Source: Candidatus Omnitrophota bacterium (GTDB lineage: Bacteria > Omnitrophota > Omnitrophia > Omnitrophales > JACROU01). Taken from it: DNA of 64,000 nt. This document shows positions 3,001 through 60,849 of this stretch, piece by piece. Under the pieces are notes generated by a model. That model was not told the origin of the DNA and made no database searches. It was given only the letters and a program-made list of their open reading frames with translations. A program made the translations under genes and the position numbers. Each line of letters begins with the position of its first letter. Position 1 is the stretch's first letter. The stretch spans positions 158,776 to 222,775 of the forward strand of contig JAJDCD010000012.1 in NCBI GenBank assembly GCA_029261035.1, given 5' to 3'.

Positions 3001-6000
3001 TTATATATTTGACGAATTCCTTTTTTCTCGTTAACAACTTCTCCATTTGTAATTAAATCATTCACCATCTTAAGGCCTGCAGAATAAACCAAACCAGCCG
3101 CCTCGTTCTTTACTTCTCTTAATGTCGTGTTAATTTTGTATCCATTGCTAATCTCATTTCTCCACCCATTCACTTCATCCACAACCAAACCTTCCACCAT
3201 ACGACCACGCCAGAATGTTGTTCCTGCATCTGTTGTTATATTCCTAAGTACACCATCTACTTTACTGCGTCTTTGTTCTACCTTTTGAACCAATTGCTGA
3301 GTGTAAATAACTTTTCCAGCCGAATCCAAATGAACTTCCCCACCATCTTTAGTTACTGTAATGGTTCCAGATTTTTTACCTTCTGCATCGTATTGAAATT
3401 CGGAGGTTTGTCCTAAACCGCCCCCTTGGGTCGTTGATGTTCTTCGAAGAACCAATTCTCTCTGACCATCCTTTTCTTTGCCCACAGCTTCTCTTAACTG
3501 AGTCTCACGAACTGTTTTTATTTCCTTAACCTGTTTTCCCCCAATGTTATGAACCTCAACAACACGTCGAGCACTCGAAGTCTCTTCAGCCAACTTATTA
3601 CCACTATCCATATCATAAAGAGAGTTAACCGTAGTTCCGTTTGTTTTAACAATCTTAGAAGCTCTGCCATTCTGCATATCCCACCAAGACTTAAAGGAGG
3701 TTCGTGTGCCATCATCGGCTAAAATATTATGAGCTTCTTTTGCTCTATCAAAGAAGTCATCACTTGGAGGTTTGTTACCCGCAGTTGCTTCCTCATACTT
3801 TTTGCTAGCTTCAACCATTTTTGTAATGTAATTATTTACTTCTTCAAACATTACGTCATAATTCCCTCCAGAAGAAGTATTTTGAAATGCTCCTCCCTCA
3901 TAATCCATAGAACCTTTCAAACGTCTTTGTTCTGCTTCAATTAATCTCGTAAGCGCAGATCCGTCATTTCCTAAATCTGCCCCATGATTATGGTGGTCCA
4001 TATGATCCGGAGAACCGCACTGCGCTGGAGCTTTATGCGTGTAGCTTTTAACTTCTTTAATAACCCTTCTGCTTACAAAATCATTATCCAACTCTCTTTC
4101 GAACATTTTTTTCAAAGTAGTTTCTAATGTCTCTTTCATATCTTTAAATCGATCTACCACTCCATTGTTCAATCGAGCACCGTTAATTCTCTCAACTTCG
4201 TAAGCTTCCGTACGAGTCTGTGTATCTCGATCGTAAGTACTTCTCTGTCCCACTTTCCATTTAGAGCGGTAAGCAGTATATATAGTCGTGTCTTCATAAA
4301 TCTTTTTCATTAAGGTAGCAAGCTTTGCTGTATCTAAATCTGAAGCTTTTGATTTTTGAAAAGGGATATTGTTTAACTTTTCGCCCGTAAGAATCTCTTC
4401 TGTTTGGACATCACTATGAAAACGAACTCGAGAAGGTAAAATCTGAAGAGGATCCCAATCGCCAAAACGGTAAATAACTGTTTCATCCTGAACCAACTTA
4501 AAGTCTTGTTTAAACATATCTTCCCAGAGGTGCGCCATCTGATAAGTCTTTACATCTTTTTTAAATTCATCTACTTTAATTGGAGATGGCCATTTTTTAA
4601 TATATTCCAAAACTTTATTTCTCTCATATTTATCTTGTTCATAGGTAAATCCATCTTTCTCATAACTTCTATTTAAGATTTCATTCCCTTCTTGCTTTAA
4701 ATCTTCTTCTACAACCTCTGCAATAAGATCTGCTCTTTCATAAGCACTCATTTCATACCAGCTTTTCTTGGCTTCAACACGAGCAACAAACCTAATGTTA
4801 ATATCAAGCGCTGATAACTCATTCAAATCAACATCTGTAATGTTTGGGACTACTTCTCTTAAATGTTTTCTAGACGCTTTAATAAGAGCATTTCTATCCG
4901 CATCAATCAGCTTATCAATCTCTTCATTTACATATTTATCCATTGCATCGTCTACATATTTTTTCTTAATGATCAGCACATCTGTTTGTCCAACAGCGTC
5001 ATCTCTTTGTCGAACAGCATCATCAATTTGCTCTTGCGTGGAATTAGGATCATTCATAATACGTTGCAACTCTGCTTCTGCTTCGTTTTCTCCCCAAGCA
5101 TCAAAAAGTTTGGCTTTAATCTCATTGTAGTGATTATCATTTATAACAGTGTCCACAACACCTTCTTGAAACTCTGAAAAATCAAAATATTCGTGATTAA
5201 ATTTATCTCTTTCAACTTTAATTCCACGATCCGCTCCCATAAAACCTTCGTCTGTCTGAAAATCAATCCCACCGATCCCTTCTTCTATTTTATTGACTAA
5301 ATTCATCATACGACTAAACGACCCACCACCGCGTCCATCCGTATCCAAAATATCCTTAGTTGTAGGAAATGAAAGCGTTGTATCCTTTGTTGTTTCTGTA
5401 TAAGTACCATCCTCATTACGTCTATCTCCATAATATTGGCTATACCGTGGAGGCTCCCCAGTCATAATCCGTTCTTTTTCGTAAATTTTAAGAGGAGGAG
5501 TAGGCCCGTCTTGATATCTGTTTTCTTTATACTCATCGTATTTCTCTTCTGCACTTTTAAATACACCTCCCATACTGGTCATATCTAATTCAGGGGTGTA
5601 ACCTCCAGACATACTATAAAGTGAACGGCCATAATAATAGCCTGCATATTTGATAGGGTCGTCAGAAGTTCTATTCTTAGCAAGAATGCTTTCTGCCAAT
5701 GTTTTCATTTGAGGTTCGATCGTTGACTTTTGTTGCTTAATCCAATCTTTGTACGTATCAGCAGCATCACTAATCTTTCCTAAAGCTCCGTCCATCCCTG
5801 AAGATCCAACCAAAGCTTCATGTATTTGTTCAAATGCATCTCTGGATTTTTGAAATGCCTCTTGATAAGCTGCTTCTGTTTCATCCACAAATGTGGTGTA
5901 AGCTTCTCTAAATTCGTCTTGAGCTTTTTTATCAATTTCTTGTTTTGCATTTCGAATGGCATCTAACTGAGCAACAAACGTCTCTTCAATACCTTCTCTT

Positions 6001-9000: not shown

Positions 9001-12000
9001 GTTGGGCGTGACTCTCCTATAATAAAATTCATAGCACTTTGAGCCATACTTACCATTTGAGTATAATTAGCCGCTTTTATATTGTTTCTTTTTTCTGTAT
9101 CCGTTTCACCATCATACATACTCGCTTCAAACTCACTTACCCATTGCGAAACAGATTTTCCACCAGGTTTATAACGTGTTCTTTCATGAGGTTGATAGGC
9201 TTCAACTTCTGAATTCCAACGATATGAAGTCCTTTCTTTTGATGCATACGCATTTAATTGCCCTAAAGCATAATCATAAAGGGCTATATAAGCAGCACGA
9301 TGGGTGTTGTGGTGACCTGTTAATGTAGTTTCAAAGCTATTAATTGCTGTTTCAACTTTGGCTTTGTTTGCACGATAATCTTTGACGAAATGTCCATCCG
9401 TTCCTTCTAAAGCTGGATCCAAAAAGTCAGGGTCATCTAATGCAATAGCATCTTCGTAAAAATTCTCAATATTATGAGGTTGATACAATTCTTTCAAATC
9501 GGTTGTGTGCTTTTTTAAATTCTCAAAGAGTTCCACCGTTCTCTTTCTTTGAACTAATATACGCTCCTTTACTTTTAACATATCCTTAGCATGCTCTAAA
9601 TCTCGAAGTAAAGGACTGCTGTCATCTCTATCGGAGGCTTGGTCATACAAAGCTTGTCTTTGTTCTACGATTTGTTTCGCTACATTGTAATCATGTTCTG
9701 CAAGAAACTTCTTCGCTGCCAAACCACGTATATCCAACTTACGAAGAACCATCATTCCAGCATCCACTTCTTCAAATGAGATATCATTCCAACTTTTATC
9801 TGAAATATCTTCAGCAAACTCTGCAGCTTGCCCCGGTTCTGCGCCGGCAGTCCCTTCTAATGCTTTTAAGTCTTTTTTAGCATTTGTGAGATCAAACTCT
9901 GCAGCTTTCACCGCTAACTCAGCTGCTGCAACAGCATCCCCCTCTGCCACTTTCAATTGATCTCTCGCATTTTTTAAAGCAATTTCTTTTGCTCGAATCA
10001 CTTCTCTCAAAGCAGCTCCCTGCCGACCCGACAAAGCTGCTTTTGCTGCTGTCATTGCTTGTTGAGCACGAGCCAAATCATCCCGATTATTCCCTTCAAG
10101 ATAATTACGAACATCATCATAATATTTTTCTGCAGATTTTAAGTTAGTTGCTAAATTCTCAGCAAAAACATCTTTATCTTGGAAAGAATTGATTGCTACA
10201 AAAAGCCGTCCTTCATCTTTTCTGAAATTCTCATGCGCTGTAACCACTTTAGATGTTTCTTTATAGAGTTTCTCCATGGTGGCATGTTCACGAATGCGAT
10301 TCGTAATCGCTTTAACAAATGCATTTTTCGCCTGAACAGGCATCACCAATTTAGGAGGAGGATCTTGAGATAAATACCTCGCGTTTTCAGCCATTTGATC
10401 CGTTAAACCTGTAAAATTCTTTAGATGAGGTGGAATGAATTTATATATTTCTGCTGTAGGACCAGCTGCACCAACCTGATAAGCAGCAAAGAGTTTGTGA
10501 ATTTGCGACATTGTTGGATCGTAGTTTGATTCTGTGTCCTTTTGATTTGCTGTGGCCTGCAAAGCAGCTGCGTCATTTCTTAACTCTACCGCTTCAGCTT
10601 CTTTCTTTACAGCAAATGCCTCTAACTCTTGGACTCGCTTCAACATATCTTGAGTCGGCTGACTTAAAGCGCTCAATTCGGAATTCGCTTTTACTGCAGA
10701 AGCTCGAGCTTCTGCTGCTGCTTCCTCTGCCACTTCCGCAGAAGTAATAGCCACATCCGCTTGATGCTGAGCTGAAGTCAAACTAAAGGTTTGATATGGA
10801 AGCTCTCCATCTAAGATGACGCTAGAAGGATCTCTGAAATTCGCATTTCTTGGATCTATATCATCCAAGAGTGACCCATCTCCTCTTTCATCAATAATAT
10901 CCTCAAAAGTTCCATCGGACATAATTGCAATTTGTTTTAAAACTTTTCTTGCCGAAATAACTGGCTGTCCATCCTCATCAAATTGATCTTCCAAATACCA
11001 TATCTCACCCTTAATTCCTGATGGATTCGTCCAAACAATTTTTCCGTTTGGAGTCATTGTTTCTCCATTTTGATAGAAAAGTTCATCTTGGGCCAAATTA
11101 GCTGTTCCAGCTACTCTGAAATCAGTAATCTCATCTCCTTCTTGAGGAGGTGGTGCATTCGCAGGAGAATTTGTATCTTTAATGTATTGCAAGGTCCAAC
11201 CATTTTTTAAACGCGCTGTCGTAACAGACCCAACAGAAGGCTGAAAACCCAATTGATTTCCTGCACCATCATAGTAAACCTCATTACCATCAAAATAAGC
11301 TGTTTTTAATGTAATGTTGCCACGATCATCTTTTTCATATTTATATTCATAAACTTTTGGTAAAGCTATGATAGAACCTATCTGAGTCCCTTCTGTAGGA
11401 GCCTCAGAAGGTACTGCTTCTTGATTTTGCAAAACTTGAAGAGCTGCACCATCATAAACTTCTGATTTAACCAAATCACCAGCATCATCATAATGATTAA
11501 CCGTTCTAGAAGCCCCATTAGGTCCTCCAGAAGAGTTATCAATCATTTTTACAAGCAACCCTTCTTCTCTAAAATATTCAAATTCGTGTGTAACACCATT
11601 TGCAATAGAAAGTGTCATATCTCCCTTTTCATCATATTCGATATGGCTTTCTAAGGTTTCTTCCTGTTGCGTGACTGGGTTGACCTGAACAGCAGTTCCA
11701 TCGACAATAGTTTTTAAAATTTTACCTTTAGGATCATCGTCTTCTCTTTCGTAAGTGTATTTCATTACAGAACCATCAGGACGGTTAACTTCTTTAATTG
11801 TTGTGTCCGAGTTAAATATGGTAACAGTTCCTAAAGTTGTTCTATCTTCTGGGAAAAATGGATCTTCTGTGATTTCAGAACGTTTAAACGCTTTTCCTTC
11901 ATCGTCAATACCGTAAGTCCAAGAAGTCACAATCCCTCGTCCATCAATGTTTTTAGTTAACTTTCCTTCAACATCGAATTCTTGAGCATTCATCGTTCCG

Positions 12001-57302: not shown

Positions 57303-57689
57303 TTAAGGACATATTTCGGAGTTTAGAACTTTTTCTACTTCTTCTTGTAACCGGATTAAATTAAAGGGTTTAGATAAAAAGGAATCACAACCCAATTTTT
57401 TTGCATTTTCTTTAACTGTGAAATCGATATACCCGGTATTCACAATCACTTTACTCTTCTTATTAGAGGCTTTCATTTCTTTTAAGACCTCTAGTCCAGA
57501 TATGTCTGGCAGCTTCAAATCAAGTAAAATAAGGTCAAAATCGCCACTGTCAAATAGGTCCAATCCCTTCCGACCCGTATCTGCAACGGCAACTTGGAAG
57601 CCTTCATCTTCGAAAAACAGCTTCACTTCCTGAATAATGTCTTCTTCGTCATCAATGACTAATAGTTTCTTCATGTTCCACTTCCTCAA
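57303..57689 (-). CDS. Single-domain response regulator (CheY-like receiver, no output domain). The likely start is MKKLLVIDD.
   Basis: ORF track, 128 aa: VIDDEEDI...D...KLPD...K with receiver-domain acidic pocket and Lys. Confidence 0.85.
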   Translation of the reverse strand: MRKWNMKKLLVIDDEEDIIQEVKLFFEDEGFQVAVADTGRKGLDLFDSGDFDLILLDLKLPDISGLEVLKEMKASNKKSKVIVNTGYIDFTVKENAKKLGCDSFLSKPFNLIRLQEEVEKVLNSEICP

Positions 57690-59322
57690 AGATAGGAATT
57701 CTTATGATAAATTGGGTTCCAAGATCTGGATTACTGATTACCTCAATATCACCCCCATGAAGCTCAATAATATATTTACTCATATACAAACCAATACCAG
57801 AACCTTTACCTTCTTTTTTTGTTGTAAATCTGAAATTAAAAATTTTCTTCTTTATTTCATCAGACATCCCACAGCCATTATCTGAAAAATCAACCTTCAG
57901 CAAAGACTCATTTTCTTCATCACGAGATGCTTTAACCGTTATTCTTTTTTCCCTCTGACTTAGTAAAGCATGTGTAGAGTTAATAAACAAATTCAAAAAC
58001 ACTTCTTGCAAACGCTCTAAATCCCCTTTAATCAAAGGTACATCAGGAGCAATATCTATATCCACATCCACCCCAGATAAGTTATCCATATAAGTCTGGA
58101 ACCGAACCAAAGGAAGAGTCTCTTCTAATACAAGTTTTAACGATAGAGGCTGCATATGCCCCTTCTCATGTTTTCGCAAAAGTCCTGTCAGCGTGTTAAC
58201 AACAGCCTTAATACGCCCTATATTTGAATCAATCTTTTTAAATACATCCAAAACTTCACTTACCTTTAAATCTTTATTTTTTCTGTATTTCAAAATAACA
58301 CGACTTACATTCATTGACAGAATAGTTAAAGGATTATTGATTTCATGCCCTACAGAAGAAGATAAACGTCCTAATGTTGCCATCTTTTGCTCGTGCAATA
58401 GTTGAGCCTGTTTATCTTGCAATTGTTTGTTAGCCTCTTCCGTTTCCTTTAATGCTTCAATTAACTTATTTTGAGCGTCTGAAAATTCAAAATTAATAGA
58501 CTCCAATTTCTTACTTTTTGTAAGGGCTTCCTCATACAAACGTGAGTTTTCCATCGAGATTGCTAATTCTTGAACTAACTGAAACAATAAAGCCAGGTCG
58601 TCCTTATGAAAACTTTTCTTATCTTTTCTTTCCCCCAATAACAAAATAATTTTCATTTCACTGCCCAGAAAACTAGGAATAATACTAGCCGATTGAAGCC
58701 TCATCATTTCTTGTTTTAACAACTCACAGGAATAAGGTGCTGGAGCCCAACTTAAACCTCGGTTAGATTCCTGAATTACAGCTTCTAATCTCTCCAAACA
58801 AACAGATTGTTTTTCATTTTCCAAAAAGCTAATTAAAGGATTTCTCTCATCTACAGACAAAGCTATTTCTTCTTTTATCAAATATCCACGTTGATAAGCT
58901 AAACGAAACAAGCCTTCTTGGTCCTTATAAAGAATAGCAGCGTTCTTAACTTCAAGTATCAGTGTAGCGAAATGTACGATCAAACTAAACAATCTTCTTC
59001 TACTGCTAACTTTTGCTAAACGACGACTCACATCTTCAAGTAAATGCTTATATATAAGTTTTCTTGGAAAAAAGACCCAATCTAGGATCGTTTCTGTATG
59101 AGGGTATAAAAGATCATAAATAACGAAGGATAAAAAAGAAACCAACCCTACCAAAACCCAATGATTAATAGTTGTGGCAGATAAAAAATATCGGTTGCAG
59201 ATATAAAGAACAAAGTAGAGAGATAAAAAAACAGTAAGGAAGAATAAAGATTTTACAGCTTGTTTTGAAATGAAGTTGATTAGCGTAGGTTTTGAACCTG
59301 GATTGAATTTTTCTCTTGCCAT
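57652..59322 (-). CDS. Membrane sensor histidine kinase (HisKA + HATPase_c).
   Basis: ORF track, 556 aa. N-terminal TM helices, H-box SSVGHEINNPLTIL, and N/G1/G2 boxes (DNGCGM...GSGIGL). Overlaps the receiver gene start. Confidence 0.88.
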   Translation of the reverse strand: MAREKFNPGSKPTLINFISKQAVKSLFFLTVFLSLYFVLYICNRYFLSATTINHWVLVGLVSFLSFVIYDLLYPHTETILDWVFFPRKLIYKHLLEDVSRRLAKVSSRRRLFSLIVHFATLILEVKNAAILYKDQEGLFRLAYQRGYLIKEEIALSVDERNPLISFLENEKQSVCLERLEAVIQESNRGLSWAPAPYSCELLKQEMMRLQSASIIPSFLGSEMKIILLLGERKDKKSFHKDDLALLFQLVQELAISMENSRLYEEALTKSKKLESINFEFSDAQNKLIEALKETEEANKQLQDKQAQLLHEQKMATLGRLSSSVGHEINNPLTILSMNVSRVILKYRKNKDLKVSEVLDVFKKIDSNIGRIKAVVNTLTGLLRKHEKGHMQPLSLKLVLEETLPLVRFQTYMDNLSGVDVDIDIAPDVPLIKGDLERLQEVFLNLFINSTHALLSQREKRITVKASRDEENESLLKVDFSDNGCGMSDEIKKKIFNFRFTTKKEGKGSGIGLYMSKYIIELHGGDIEVISNPDLGTQFIIRIPIFEEVEHEETISH

Positions 59323-59484: not shown

Positions 59485-59569
59485 TGGTGGCGCCGGAGAG
59501 ACTTGAACTCTCACACCTTGCGGTACATGATCCTAAGTCATGCGCGTCTGCCAATTCCGCCACAGCGCC
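59485..59569 (-). tRNA. tRNA-Leu (anticodon UAG), class II with a long variable arm, CCA encoded.
   Basis: Minus-strand sequence ggcgctgtggcggaattggcagacgcgcatgacttaggatcatgtaccgcaaggtgtgagagttcaagtctctccggcgccacca: 7-bp acceptor stem (one G-U), anticodon stem catga/tcatg with loop cuUAGga, 13-nt variable arm. Confidence 0.85.
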
Positions 59570-59599
59570 AGAACTAGATTAAAATTCAGCTTGTATTAC

Positions 59600-59860
59600 T
59601 AATTAATAATTTCACAAAGTGCACCGTGCACCCAAGGGAATATCCCCTTCAGCACCAGGCTAATCACTTCGCTACGCTTCGTAGCCGATGCTGGACTCAT
59701 ACCTTCCACATTTTATGATGTGGTGCATGGTCTGCCAGTCGACAAAACGATGTTTGCCTGTCGTGCACTTAGCTGTGAACCGTTTTTTGTGTTCACGCTT
59801 AGCATAGTGCATGGCCAATTCCCTGCCTGCCGGCAGGCAGGCGCCAGCTTCAGCGCCCTG
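59600..59860. other. GC-rich, palindrome-dense ~260-bp non-coding island between tRNA-Leu and tRNA-Lys. Candidate structured RNA or integration/recombination scar.
   Basis: Perfect 20-mer palindrome cctgcctgccggcaggcagg; other self-complementary stretches gtgcaccgtgcac, ggggatattccc, gctacgcttcgtagc, cttcagggcgctgaag, tgaacacaaaaaacggttca. GC content is markedly above surroundings. No ORF, and no match I can recognise to RNase P, tmRNA, SRP or 6S consensus elements. Confidence 0.35.
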
Positions 59861-60009
59861 AAGAGATCAAAATTATAAAGTATAAGCTAAAAAATAGCGA
59901 GAAAATCATATATATGATTTTCACTCTCATTTTGAATTTTTACTCTTCCATCTTTATTTGTATGGCCTACCATACGAAGCTAAGGACACGCTAGTGCCTT
60001 AGCGTAGTA

Positions 60010-60086
60010 TGGTGCCCGCACTAGGACTTGAACCTAGGACCCACTGATTAAGAGTCAGTTGCTCTAGCCAACTGAGCTATGCGGGC
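60010..60086 (-). tRNA. tRNA-Lys (anticodon CUU), CCA encoded.
   Basis: Minus-strand sequence gcccgcatagctcagttggctagagcaactgactcttaatcagtgggtcctaggttcaagtcctagtgcgggcacca: acceptor stem gcccgca/tgcgggc, anticodon loop cuCUUaa, T-loop ttcaagt. Confidence 0.85.
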
Positions 60087-60174
60087 AAAGTTATACCGCA
60101 TAGCTAAGTTGGCGTTATAGCTGCCTGTCTGCCATCTTGCTGGGCAGAAGCTATGCGGACTTATTATTTTATCT

Positions 60175-60849
60175 TTACGCCCTGTTTCTCTTCTTATCGA
60201 AATAGTCAAGGTCAGATAAAGGAACAGCTACAGATGTCGCAATATTGGTTAAATGCGCTGTAATTCGTTTAAAATACCTTGCTGTCAAAGTTAGGGAAAC
60301 GGTTTCATCGGACGGATAATTACTTTTTACTAGCTTCTTTAAAATTTCATCACAAGTCTCAGAAACTTCTCTCTCAACTTCCCATACAGATTCTGCCTTT
60401 TTTTCATCCGAATTCATAAAAGCTGTTTTTGTTTGTTTAAACAGTTGGAGAATTTTCTCATCAATAGAGTCAAACAATTCAACAAACTTCTGATTGTCTA
60501 AAGGTTTACCTGTAAATGTAGTAACTTCGTATAAGTTTTTTGAGTAATCCCCCAATCTCTCAGCATCCTTAACCACACTCATCAGCAATAACGAGGTCGA
60601 CATATCCACGGAGGGCTGAACGGCCAAATGTTCAACAATCCGTTTGCGAATTTCTTTTTCACGACTATTTACGCGGAAATCTATGTCATAAATAATCTTC
60701 TTAAGATCACCTTCTCCTTTATCGCGAATTAATTTGTCGCAAACAATCACAAACATCTCTTCTGTGTCATCCAGCATTTTTTTAAAATCCCCTAATACTT
60801 CGCTGACAAAATCACTACCTTTCCAAAACTGCATTAAATTTTTAAACAT
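60175..60849 (-). CDS. phoU: PhoU-family phosphate transport regulator.
   Basis: ORF track, 224 aa, with the two-repeat PhoU helical architecture and a position downstream of a Na/Pi cotransporter gene. Confidence 0.8.
   Translation of the reverse strand: MFKNLMQFWKGSDFVSEVLGDFKKMLDDTEEMFVIVCDKLIRDKGEGDLKKIIYDIDFRVNSREKEIRKRIVEHLAVQPSVDMSTSLLLMSVVKDAERLGDYSKNLYEVTTFTGKPLDNQKFVELFDSIDEKILQLFKQTKTAFMNSDEKKAESVWEVEREVSETCDEILKKLVKSNYPSDETVSLTLTARYFKRITAHLTNIATSVAVPLSDLDYFDKKRNRA

Follow-up and report, generated by a model that had tools for sequence, protein, structure and literature searches.

Partial tRNA 5'-end copies and palindromic insertions as the probable origin of a GC-rich spacer between tRNA-Lys and tRNA-Leu in an Omnitrophota genome

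Introduction

Yeast mitochondrial GC clusters are GC-rich palindromic mini-elements of AT-rich organelle genomes. Small hairpin-forming repeats termed SDRs have reportedly been described from heterocystous cyanobacteria by Elhai et al. in 2008 under the title [quoted passage not shown]. Integration at tRNA genes by integrases leaves a second copy of the tRNA 3' part downstream of the intact gene, and Williams is said to have defined, in 2002, sublocation classes for the tRNA-gene att sites of integrative elements. Quasi-palindrome template-switch mutagenesis, a subject associated with Ripley and Lovett, is an established replication-error mechanism.

Among bacterial chromosomal repeats, REP and REPIN sequences are mobilised by RAYT transposases, which are IS200/IS605-like Y1 enzymes, and REP families have been reported in the PVC superphylum (PMC3116915, PMC3733652). 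A conserved GTAG or CGTC tag is found at one end of these repeats (PMC3733652). For organellar palindromic mini-elements, algal mitochondria provide a comparison case (PMC4524435). Here we describe a spacer between two tRNA genes within a 64-kb stretch of Omnitrophota DNA (the window, that is, the whole stretch analysed), for which an initial annotation had proposed either an integration scar or a structured RNA, and compare it with these systems.

Locus organization

ARAGORN and Rfam alike identify tRNA-Lys(CTT) and tRNA-Leu(TAG), both encoded on the minus strand, an orientation that the initial annotation had not given (Table 1). As the initial annotation had stated, the two genes are separated by about 440 bp without an ORF of note (exactly 440 bp, 59570-60009, the longest ORFs having at most 52 aa) and the central part is GC-rich, the core (59615-59863) having 53.8% GC versus 37.2% for the window; the AT-rich spacer parts flanking the core have 20-23% GC and the tRNAs 54-59%. 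The spacer region also contains the 300 bp with the highest palindrome density in the window, where perfect stems of at least 6 account for 114 nt against a window mean of 12.9 (sd 15.9). Four of the palindromes reported initially, the perfect CCTGCCTGCCGGCAGGCAGG (hereafter PAL) and GTGCACCGTGCAC, GCTACGCTTCGTAGC and CTTCAGCGCCCTGAAG, are real; a fifth, ggggatattccc, is not a perfect one, since its minus-strand form includes a G:U pair. A further perfect palindrome, GAAAATCATATATATGATTTTC, lies in the AT-rich portion of the extra DNA and had escaped that list. A hairpin directly follows tRNA-Lys, and the relative L001 has one at this position too.

Table 1. Features of the tRNA-Lys/tRNA-Leu locus, in window coordinates
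Feature	Position	Strand	Remarks
tRNA-Leu(TAG)	59485-59569	-	intact, CCA encoded; ARAGORN, Rfam
AT-rich tail including true tRNA-Leu leader	59570-59614	-	
Rest of GC-rich core	59615-59729	-	hairpin series, 51% GC
Palindrome GTGCACCGTGCAC	59619-59631		
Palindrome GCTACGCTTCGTAGC	59671-59685		
AGAC, copy of tRNA-Leu nt 21-24	59730-59733	-	
80-nt insert	59734-59813	-	two imperfect hairpins, TGGC direct repeats at its bounds
GAATTGGC, copy of tRNA-Leu nt 13-20	59814-59821	-	
PAL CCTGCCTGCCGGCAGGCAGG	59822-59841	.	perfect palindrome, 10+10; precise 20-nt insertion in tRNA-Leu fragment
TGGCG, copy of tRNA-Leu nt 8-12	59842-59846	-	
4-nt insert AAGC	59847-59850	-	with leader copy completes perfect palindrome CTTCAG-GGCG-CTGAAG
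Palindrome CTTCAGCGCCCTGAAG	59848-59863		
GGCGCTG, copy of tRNA-Leu nt 1-7	59851-59857	-	
tRNA-Leu 5' leader copy AATTTTGATCTCTTCAG	59858-59874	-	compare true leader AATTTTAATCTAGTTCT at 59570-59586
TATAAT hexamer, possible -10 element	59872-59877	-	15 nt upstream of pseudo-tRNA-Leu start; sequence reading
Palindrome GAAAATCATATATATGATTTTC	59901-59922	.	perfect, 22 nt, AT-rich
Hairpin directly after tRNA-Lys	59969-60013	-	overlaps ACCA end of tRNA-Lys
tRNA-Lys(CTT)	60010-60086	-	intact, CCA encoded; ARAGORN, Rfam
Inverted copy of tRNA-Lys nt 3-20	60096-60113	-	17/18 matches
AGCTAT, second short inverted copy, tRNA-Lys nt 7-12	60117-60122	-	sequence reading
Small leader hairpin TCTGCC-CAGCAAGAT-GGCAGA	60128-60148	-	
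GTCCGCATAGCT, direct copy of tRNA-Lys nt 1-12	60149-60160	-	11/12 identical
phoU-like gene (PF01895)	60175-60849	-	stop codon 60175-60177; context

The GC-rich core opens with a copy of the tRNA-Leu leader and of tRNA-Leu nt 1-24, split by inserts of 4, 20 and 80 nt. With the inserts taken out, the tRNA part is identical to the gene at all 24 positions (24/24), and the leader copy agrees with the true leader at ~11 of 17. Aligned to tRNA-Leu and its leader, the minus-strand core scored 45.7 compared with 24.7±4.3 for shuffled sequences, a value reached by 0 of 3000 shuffles; the same alignment test gave no signal for the other strand, for tRNA-Lys or for tRNA-Gly. The two copies form a direct repeat 288 nt apart. 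ARAGORN found no tRNA in the core with the inserts deleted, and the segment, having significant identity to tRNA-Leu and no complete cloverleaf, is a tRNA pseudogene or partial tRNA duplicate. The partial tRNA duplications claimed initially are therefore present and more extensive than had been seen, since the core itself begins with one. Beyond this copy, the core and tRNA-Leu share no significant similarity, so the idea that the core as a whole is a decayed tRNA was rejected. The 80-nt insert bears a weak, marginal resemblance to the 3' end and trailer of tRNA-Lys (p ~0.02), and did not align significantly with the Lys-Leu spacer of L001, taken as ancestral.

Ahead of tRNA-Lys, the inverted copy of its 5' end and the second copy in tRNA orientation are both where the initial annotation had placed them, the 10-nt core of the latter, CCGCATAGCT, being exact (60149-60158). 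No chance match to the tRNA-Lys 5'-end copies arose in 100 shuffles, and the direct repeat of nt 1-12 has its copies 74 nt apart. The longer inverted copy can pair with either the direct copy (10 bp) or the true tRNA-Lys 5' end (18 bp), and the minimum free energy structure predicted for tRNA-Lys with its leader swaps strands, the decoy copy standing in for the true 5' strand (-66.4 kcal/mol versus -54.1 kcal/mol for hairpin plus cloverleaf). The hairpin 3' of phoU had been regarded as the probable terminator of that gene; it has no T-run and is followed by UAUAACUUUG, and no terminator-like site was called on the minus strand, which leaves this designation unsupported.

Comparative and database searches

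The closest relative is another Omnitrophota species represented by three assemblies, identical to each other at this locus, and the gene order NaPi-PhoU-tRNALys-tRNALeu-kinase is common to it and the source genome. Its Lys-Leu spacer is just 55 bp long, and its 63-bp tRNA-Lys leader contains neither tRNA copies nor the leader hairpin. The comparison with relatives that had been suggested thus shows the segment to be a presence/absence polymorphism and missing in the nearest relative, the source genome having ~385 bp of extra DNA in the Lys-Leu spacer and ~64 bp ahead of tRNA-Lys; as the comparison covers a single related species and no outgroup, the difference could reflect insertion here or deletion there. 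Synteny anchored on PhoU was also compared across 80 further loci of Omnitrophota and PVC members. No tRNA followed PhoU in any of the 60 that were scanned for tRNAs, and these loci consequently add no comparative depth.

At the gathering threshold, only three tRNAs passed in Rfam 15 and the spacer matched no family, yielding just noise far below threshold at E<=10. The earlier exclusion of tmRNA, RNase P RNA, SRP RNA and 6S RNA is borne out by the lack of any Rfam family, and the proposed check for a known housekeeping RNA in the spacer found none. By blastn the spacer had no counterpart in plasmid and phage collections, the segment does not recur in the window, and four 20-22-mers from the core outside PAL had 0 matches in IMG/VR viral contigs. 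An exact 20-mer from the 80-nt insert had three chance matches in JGI metagenomes, with unrelated flanks. Six small spacer ORFs had no match in Pfam, and the 48-aa ORF, the only one so searched, produced a single weak, repetitive match (E = 7e-5) in an exhaustive HMMER search of 1.84 billion representatives. The segment does not resemble a MITE or IS derivative either: its sole candidate for a terminal inverted repeat is a weak 13-nt pair rich in A and T, no second copy was found in the window or the collections, and PAL has no target duplication in the unambiguous case described below.

A dispersed 20-nt palindrome

Exact matches to PAL were found in another Omnitrophota genome (L047) and in 35 IMG/VR viral-contig stretches, versus 0 for two composition-matched control palindromes. 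The loci examined contain 44 exact copies, with up to 6 in one 29-kb viral contig and 1 in the window; the palindrome is known from many independent data sets, sequence variants among them, and the identical 20-mer occurs in widely differing hosts (37-68% GC) and in viral contigs. The flanks of the 44 copies are unrelated. In five cases PAL is a precise insertion without target duplication, including inside the variable loop of a tRNA-Met (L108) and the D-loop of a tRNA-Lys (L115, the unambiguous case); empty sites were compared for L047 versus L042, within L087, and at L108 and L115. Of the 44 copies, 4 lie in tRNA or tRNA-derived sequence, two of them in otherwise intact tRNA genes. No Y1 transposase or RAYT was found among the 10 ORFs of the one PAL-rich viral locus scanned (L104), where just phage structural and lysis genes were seen, nor was a RAYT gene seen in the window, and a literature search for the 20-mer string found no paper.

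PAL is a member of a widely dispersed family of precise mini-insertions. We tentatively raise the possibility that it may be a self-contained mobile unit, a 20-nt perfect palindrome among the smallest known, that inserts precisely without target duplication, probably as a single-stranded hairpin, and that has spread across Omnitrophota, other bacteria and their viruses with an apparent preference for tRNA-like or hairpin-loop targets; the GC-rich core might then be a graveyard of such insertions in a dead tRNA fragment. If so, PAL in intact tRNA genes would either add an extra arm or need removal at the RNA level, and palindromic selfish DNA would have a smaller minimum size and a wider host range. 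Of interest would then be what enzyme mobilises a hairpin with nothing else attached, and whether PAL is tolerated in tRNAs or excised from them.

Origin of the extra DNA

In our view, the extra DNA around both tRNAs is no gene but an expansion that is non-coding, lineage-specific and young, made up of local tRNA 5'-end duplications and palindromic insertions, and we assign this reading a probability of about 0.58. The 5' ends of the adjacent tRNA genes would have been partly duplicated at the outset, as a direct copy of leader and nt 1-24 in the case of tRNA-Leu, and as a direct copy of nt 1-12 plus inverted copies of nt 3-20 and nt 7-12 in the case of tRNA-Lys. The most likely mechanism is slippage during replication, or template switching within a strand, at sequence prone to hairpins; the AAGC insert makes CTTCAG...CTG a perfect palindrome, which is a signature of quasi-palindrome template switching. 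Later insertions, PAL among them, would have entered the dead tRNA-Leu fragment. We infer that transcription of the tRNAs probably includes the segment, which would form a long structured 5' leader on pre-tRNA-Leu as well as the leader of pre-tRNA-Lys, that RNase P and 3' processing would then remove it, and that it is expected to have no function of its own. The core had been called compositionally foreign, a description that is not supported, given that the core matches the tRNAs in GC content and is in part demonstrably tRNA- or palindrome-derived; we read the high GC as tRNA-derived and hairpin sequence in an AT-rich genome and not as a foreign gene.

Direct repeats of tRNA 5' segments flanking the extra DNA (288 nt apart for Leu, 74 nt for Lys), a relative without that DNA and ~200 nt with no local source are also what might be expected if a mobile element had recombined with tRNA-Leu in its 5' part, and another likewise with tRNA-Lys, so that crossover direct repeats and a few hundred bases of an element arm survived the loss of most of the element. 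However, the duplicated parts are 5' ends upstream, whereas tRNA integrases duplicate the 3' part downstream, and there is no integrase, excisionase or other element gene between phoU and the kinase gene. Nothing similar was found in phage or plasmid collections, and site-specific recombination does not explain the two inverted copies. The scar suggested initially is not supported in its classical integrase form, which has a 3' repeat downstream and an adjacent integrase, and we regard an integration or excision scar of any kind as unlikely. Chimeric inverted duplications of the kind generated by amplification could give similar junctions to the inverted partial copies, and an assembly or amplification artefact in this metagenome-assembled contig was considered for this reason. 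It is very unlikely, as the tRNAs and the genes beside them are undamaged and collinear with those of the relative, PAL recurs with variants in independent data sets, and the structures nest within one another in a self-consistent way.

The minus strand might instead encode a functional structured RNA: a new small RNA, or a long regulatory 5' leader in which the 5' fragments that mimic tRNA would pair with the tRNA acceptor strands and so modulate precursor folding or processing. Such an RNA could account for the very stable predicted minus-strand fold (z = -5.8), for the preferred swapped fold of leader plus tRNA-Lys and for the retained GC content. A TATAAT hexamer is present 15 nt ahead of the core, but the promoter scan did not flag it and found nothing convincing. 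DNA palindromes lower z on both strands (plus strand z = -7.2), and the structure is plainly a composite of duplications and of an insertion that behaves selfishly elsewhere. The discrete conserved ncRNA envisaged initially has neither a family match nor a homologue in the collections searched and is missing from the only close relative, making a functional RNA improbable. A small protein gene is extremely improbable: the basic ORF of 46-48 aa at 59672-59818 on the minus strand has ATG and TTG starts and a plausible ribosome-binding site (an AGGGA Shine-Dalgarno-like motif), but it overlaps hairpins and insert junctions and is absent from the relative, and the idea was dropped on the Pfam and HMMER results given above.

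Some properties of the core sit less easily with an expansion by duplication and insertion. No source was found for about 200 nt (the 80-nt insert together with 59615-59729), which nonetheless remain at ~50% GC in a 37% GC genome. The tRNA-sense strand folds ~11 kcal/mol better than its complement (-102.7 on the minus strand versus -91.9 kcal/mol on the plus strand) and has more G:U pairs (11 versus 6), as a selected RNA would. Under neutral decay, a more even pattern would be expected than a perfectly matching tRNA-Leu fragment beside a more poorly matching leader copy.

The candidate "new ncRNA or genomic island" is replaced under our preferred reading by an explained anatomy of dead tRNA 5' fragments and hairpin insertions, and annotators may take from it the caution that GC-rich structured islands beside tRNAs in AT-rich genomes can be duplication debris.

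Comparison with known systems

Like the att sites of tRNA genes, this locus combines an intact tRNA gene with a directly repeated partial copy of it, the two flanking lineage-specific DNA. Known cases involve a 3' portion downstream, beside an integrase gene, whereas here a 5' portion lies upstream with no integrase. Template switching matches the locus in producing inverted copies of adjacent sequence, as in the inverted tRNA-Lys copies, and in perfecting imperfect palindromes, as with the AAGC insert, but it is a mechanism and not an element, and leaves the constant-sequence PAL and 200 nt unexplained. Organellar GC clusters are likewise GC-rich palindromic islands in AT-rich intergenic DNA and, like PAL, are sometimes inserted in RNA genes, making extra helices; unlike PAL, they are organellar, usually longer and often accompanied by short target duplications, with no sequence link to it.

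SDRs are said to resemble PAL in being mobile-looking and hairpin-forming, with units of ~21-27 nt, and in showing clean presence/absence insertions nested in each other and in other repeats. They differ from it in sequence and phylum, and PAL additionally occurs in tRNA genes and viral contigs. In contrast to REP and REPIN sequences, PAL is a perfect palindrome without a GTAG or CGTC tag (GTAG precedes only 2 of the 44 copies), occurs as singlets instead of inverted doublets, is identical across hosts of 37-68% GC and in viral contigs, and has no RAYT seen in the window or in L104. REP sequences are short (20-40 bp) GC-rich extragenic palindromes with many dispersed copies, a pattern that PAL may share, with 44 copies across the loci examined but 1 in the window. 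Both are found nested in other palindromes and occasionally within genes, and the insertion of PAL without target duplication fits single-strand "peel and paste" chemistry.

Locus organization and composition

Three tRNA genes were identified concordantly by ARAGORN and Rfam in the window, two of which flank the spacer. The transcriptional order is Na/Pi transporter, PhoU-like gene, tRNA-Lys, 440-bp spacer, tRNA-Leu and sensor kinase, and PhoU homologues assign the window to Candidatus Omnitrophota. The CCA end of tRNA-Leu(TAG) is encoded in the window, and the gene in L001, an assembly of the closest relative, ends ...GCGCCA followed by GTT (5865-5946). GC content is 53.8% in the spacer core, 37.2% in the window, 20-23% in the AT-rich spacer sequence flanking the core and 54-59% in the two tRNAs. 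The core value is that expected for tRNA-derived and hairpin sequence in a 37% GC genome, and the foreign DNA proposed in the initial annotation need not be invoked. All palindromes quoted in that annotation were found in the sequence with one correction, as ggggatattccc requires a G:U pair and is not a perfect palindrome, and a perfect 22-mer was absent from its list. The region ranks as the top 300 bp of the 64 kb for palindrome density: perfect stems of at least 6 take up 114 nt (mean 12.9, sd 15.9). A second perfect 20-nt palindrome, GCAGAAGCTCGAGCTTCTGC, is unrelated in sequence to the one in the core (PAL) and lies within a single frame that stays free of stops for 12,098 codons or more, runs off the window start and looks like a giant gene of the type reported for Omnitrophota; no other ORF of at least 120 aa is present in window positions 1-36000.

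Features of the window and of comparison loci
Feature	Location	Strand	Remark
Stop-free frame	3-36296	minus	
Palindrome GCAGAAGCTCGAGCTTCTGC	10696-10715		
Sensor kinase gene	57652-59322		downstream of tRNA-Leu in transcriptional order
tRNA-Leu(TAG)	59485-59569	minus	ARAGORN, Rfam
Core	59615-59863		
PAL	59822-59841		
Perfect 22-mer palindrome	59901-59922		
tRNA-Lys(CTT)	60010-60086	minus	ARAGORN, Rfam
Inverted copy of tRNA-Lys nt 3-20	60113-60096	minus	17/18
AGCTAT, inverted copy of tRNA-Lys nt 7-12	60122-60117	minus	
GTCCGCATAGCT, direct copy of tRNA-Lys nt 1-12	60160-60149	minus	11/12
PhoU-like gene	60175-60849	minus	
Inverted-repeat units	L047 3325-3454; L042 1031-1109, 2834-2900; L087 3945-3975		
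PAL sites of phage region	L090 2773-2825, 3829-3848, ~3921-3936		

Partial copies of tRNA 5' ends

On the tRNA-sense strand, the core begins at 59874 with AATTTTGATCTCTTCAG, similar to the true tRNA-Leu leader AATTTTAATCTAGTTCT, and continues as GGCGCTG-(AAGC)-TGGCG-(CCTGCCTGCCGGCAGGCAGG)-GAATTGGC-(80 nt)-AGAC, where parentheses mark three inserts. Their excision yields GGCGCTGTGGCGGAATTGGCAGAC, which matches tRNA-Leu nt 1-24 at every position (24/24). When the core was aligned locally, with gaps tolerated, to leader plus tRNA-Leu, the score was 45.7 (shuffles 24.7±4.3; 0/3000 reached 45.7), the 24-mer alone outscored all 3000 shuffles and 420 other window pieces, and no signal was obtained from the opposite strand, tRNA-Lys or tRNA-Gly. 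The core remainder (59615-59729) has no significant similarity to the rest of tRNA-Leu and ARAGORN called no tRNA in the insert-deleted core; a whole decayed tRNA-Leu gene was therefore rejected in favour of a partial 5' copy. The 4-nt insert AAGC turns CTTCAG...CTG into the perfect palindrome CTTCAG-GGCG-CTGAAG, which would be a classic product of quasi-palindrome template switching.

The copies of the tRNA-Lys 5' end noted in the initial annotation are genuine and far beyond chance (inverted, 60096-60113; direct, 60149-60158), and tRNA-Gly has no comparable copies. For leader plus tRNA-Lys (60010-60175, minus strand), the predicted minimum free energy structure is a swapped fold at -66.4 kcal/mol versus -54.1 for leader hairpin plus cloverleaf, and is thus 12 kcal/mol more stable in silico; in this model the genuine 5' end would be sequestered by the inverted copy, and the 3' acceptor strand would pair with the direct (decoy) copy. 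The hairpin previously taken as the phoU terminator is followed by UAUAACUUUG and was not flagged by a terminator scan.

Comparison with relatives

The closest relative is a single species, with 83% identity in PhoU and 68-79% DNA identity in the flanking genes; its three independent assemblies from JGI, ENA and Logan data (L001-L003) are mutually identical here. Gene order is as in the window, but phoU and tRNA-Lys are 63 bp apart without tRNA copies and the tRNA-Lys to tRNA-Leu spacer is 55 bp; the segment is therefore missing, and the window is longer by ~385 bp in the spacer and by ~64 bp in the leader of tRNA-Lys. Among Omnitrophota and PVC genomes further removed, tRNAs are not retained after PhoU, so that polarity is argued from content without an outgroup.

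Dispersal of PAL

The only blastn match between the spacer and the Omnitrophota loci compared is the PAL 20-mer. An exact scan of IMG/VR recovered PAL in 35 stretches (43 copies, six of them in one 29-kb contig), and 0 matches for each of two control perfect palindromes of the same half-site composition. Four other core 20-22-mers had no matches in viral contigs and a 20-mer from the 80-nt insert had chance matches only in JGI metagenomes, making PAL the sole dispersed component of the core. A 19-nt variant in six viral stretches and Omnitrophota locus L080, together with further variants beside exact copies, argues against a laboratory artefact. Flanks are otherwise unrelated, with GTAG directly before PAL in 2/44 copies, and the PAL string was not found in the literature searched.

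Five clean empty-site comparisons are available: the tRNA-Leu fragment versus the real tRNA-Leu gene; L047, another Omnitrophota locus, where exact PAL interrupts the repeat unit GAGATTG/CTTCGCTTCGCTCGCAATGAC, versus L042, where the unit is uninterrupted; viral contig L087, with two copies of TTGCG/TCGCACTCTTGTACGT, one with and one without PAL; a tRNA-Met of L108 with PAL in its variable loop, still called by ARAGORN and scored at 50.2 bits by Rfam with PAL as an insertion; and the D-loop (GGTA/GAGC) of an otherwise intact, intron-split tRNA-Lys(UUU) in viral contig L115. At the L115 junction, which leaves no ambiguity, precisely the PAL 20-mer has been inserted, without target duplication. 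This tRNA (IMGVR_UViG_3300035537_000177, 497-1467) was missed by ARAGORN, and its anticodon loop is split by an ~880-nt intervening sequence with a GIY-YIG ORF, an HNH-like ORF and a group I intron core (RF00028, 86 bits).

A family of inverted-repeat units (GTCATTGCGAGGAGC...GACGAAGCAATCTC / GAGATTGCTTCG...CTCGCAATGAC) is shared by Omnitrophota and a viral contig. The palindromic inserts nested in the units differ: the L047 unit has PAL in one arm and CCCGAAACTTCGGGG in the other, and L042 has a GTCCTGAGCGAAGTCGAAGG-type insert, which suggests that such nesting of mini-insertions is frequent in these genomes. Within a region of phage structural genes (L090; IMGVR_UViG_3300009494_000027), PAL copies directly follow stop codons with common flanks (caagtgca-PAL-ttgaa), one site having a shorter 16-nt version, CCTGCCTGCAGGCAGG; here PAL may also serve, or have been co-opted, as an intergenic hairpin.

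Origin of the segment

In the simplest account, to which we assign a probability of roughly 0.58, the segment consists of young debris, specific to this lineage, from tRNA 5' duplications and later insertions, and is probably transcribed as a leader. Slippage or template switching where the DNA is prone to hairpins would have partly duplicated both tRNA genes at their 5' ends, in keeping with copies in direct and inverted orientation and with small palindromes made perfect, and the dead tRNA-Leu fragment would then have gained insertions, including one copy of the selfish 20-nt palindrome. With a TATAAT located 15 nt ahead of the fragment and no terminator before tRNA-Leu, the core is probably transcribed with pre-tRNA-Leu, as a long structured 5' leader that RNase P would remove.

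Known att duplications of tRNAs are 3' parts, located downstream and beside an integrase. An integrase scar, as proposed initially, would account for the direct repeats and for ~200 nt without a local source, but there is no integrase here, the duplicated parts are 5' and inverted copies are unexpected, making this origin improbable. We consider a functional structured RNA similarly doubtful: the tRNA-sense strand has the better fold and extra G:U pairs, and GC has been retained, but no homologue was found in the collections searched, the segment is missing from the only close relative, and its origin is visibly from duplications and a selfish insert. The check for a known RNA family returned only the tRNAs at the Rfam gathering score, and only noise for the 1.1-kb region at E<=10; plasmid and phage collections held no DNA similar to the spacer, which has no second copy in the window. 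The initial observation is thus confirmed and its interpretation partly supported, in that the tRNA duplications hold and the terminator role lacks support. An assembly artefact is very unlikely, and a small protein gene even more so: no spacer ORF exceeds 52 aa, six small ORFs had no Pfam match, and the most gene-like (48 aa, minus strand, AGGGA motif upstream) had one weak, repetitive match (P0121) among 1.84 billion protein representatives. That match is spread over five short stretches of an 867-aa protein and is probably a low-complexity or repeat coincidence.

Relation to known repeat systems

The whole locus is a pseudo-tRNA fragment plus a mini-palindrome insertion, both of known kinds; it is ordinary once decoded, and its follow-up value lies in a dispersed 20-nt palindrome inserting cleanly into tRNA genes. 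Small dispersed repeats of 21-27 nt are reportedly present in cyanobacteria (Elhai 2008), and PAL resembles these elements. It also behaves like REP/REPIN elements (PMC3116915, PMC3733652). REPs are defined by a GTAG/CGTC tag and by a cognate RAYT; PAL is without the tag, and is therefore filed, by analogy, as a sequence that functions like a mobile palindromic repeat of very small size, rather than as a REP.
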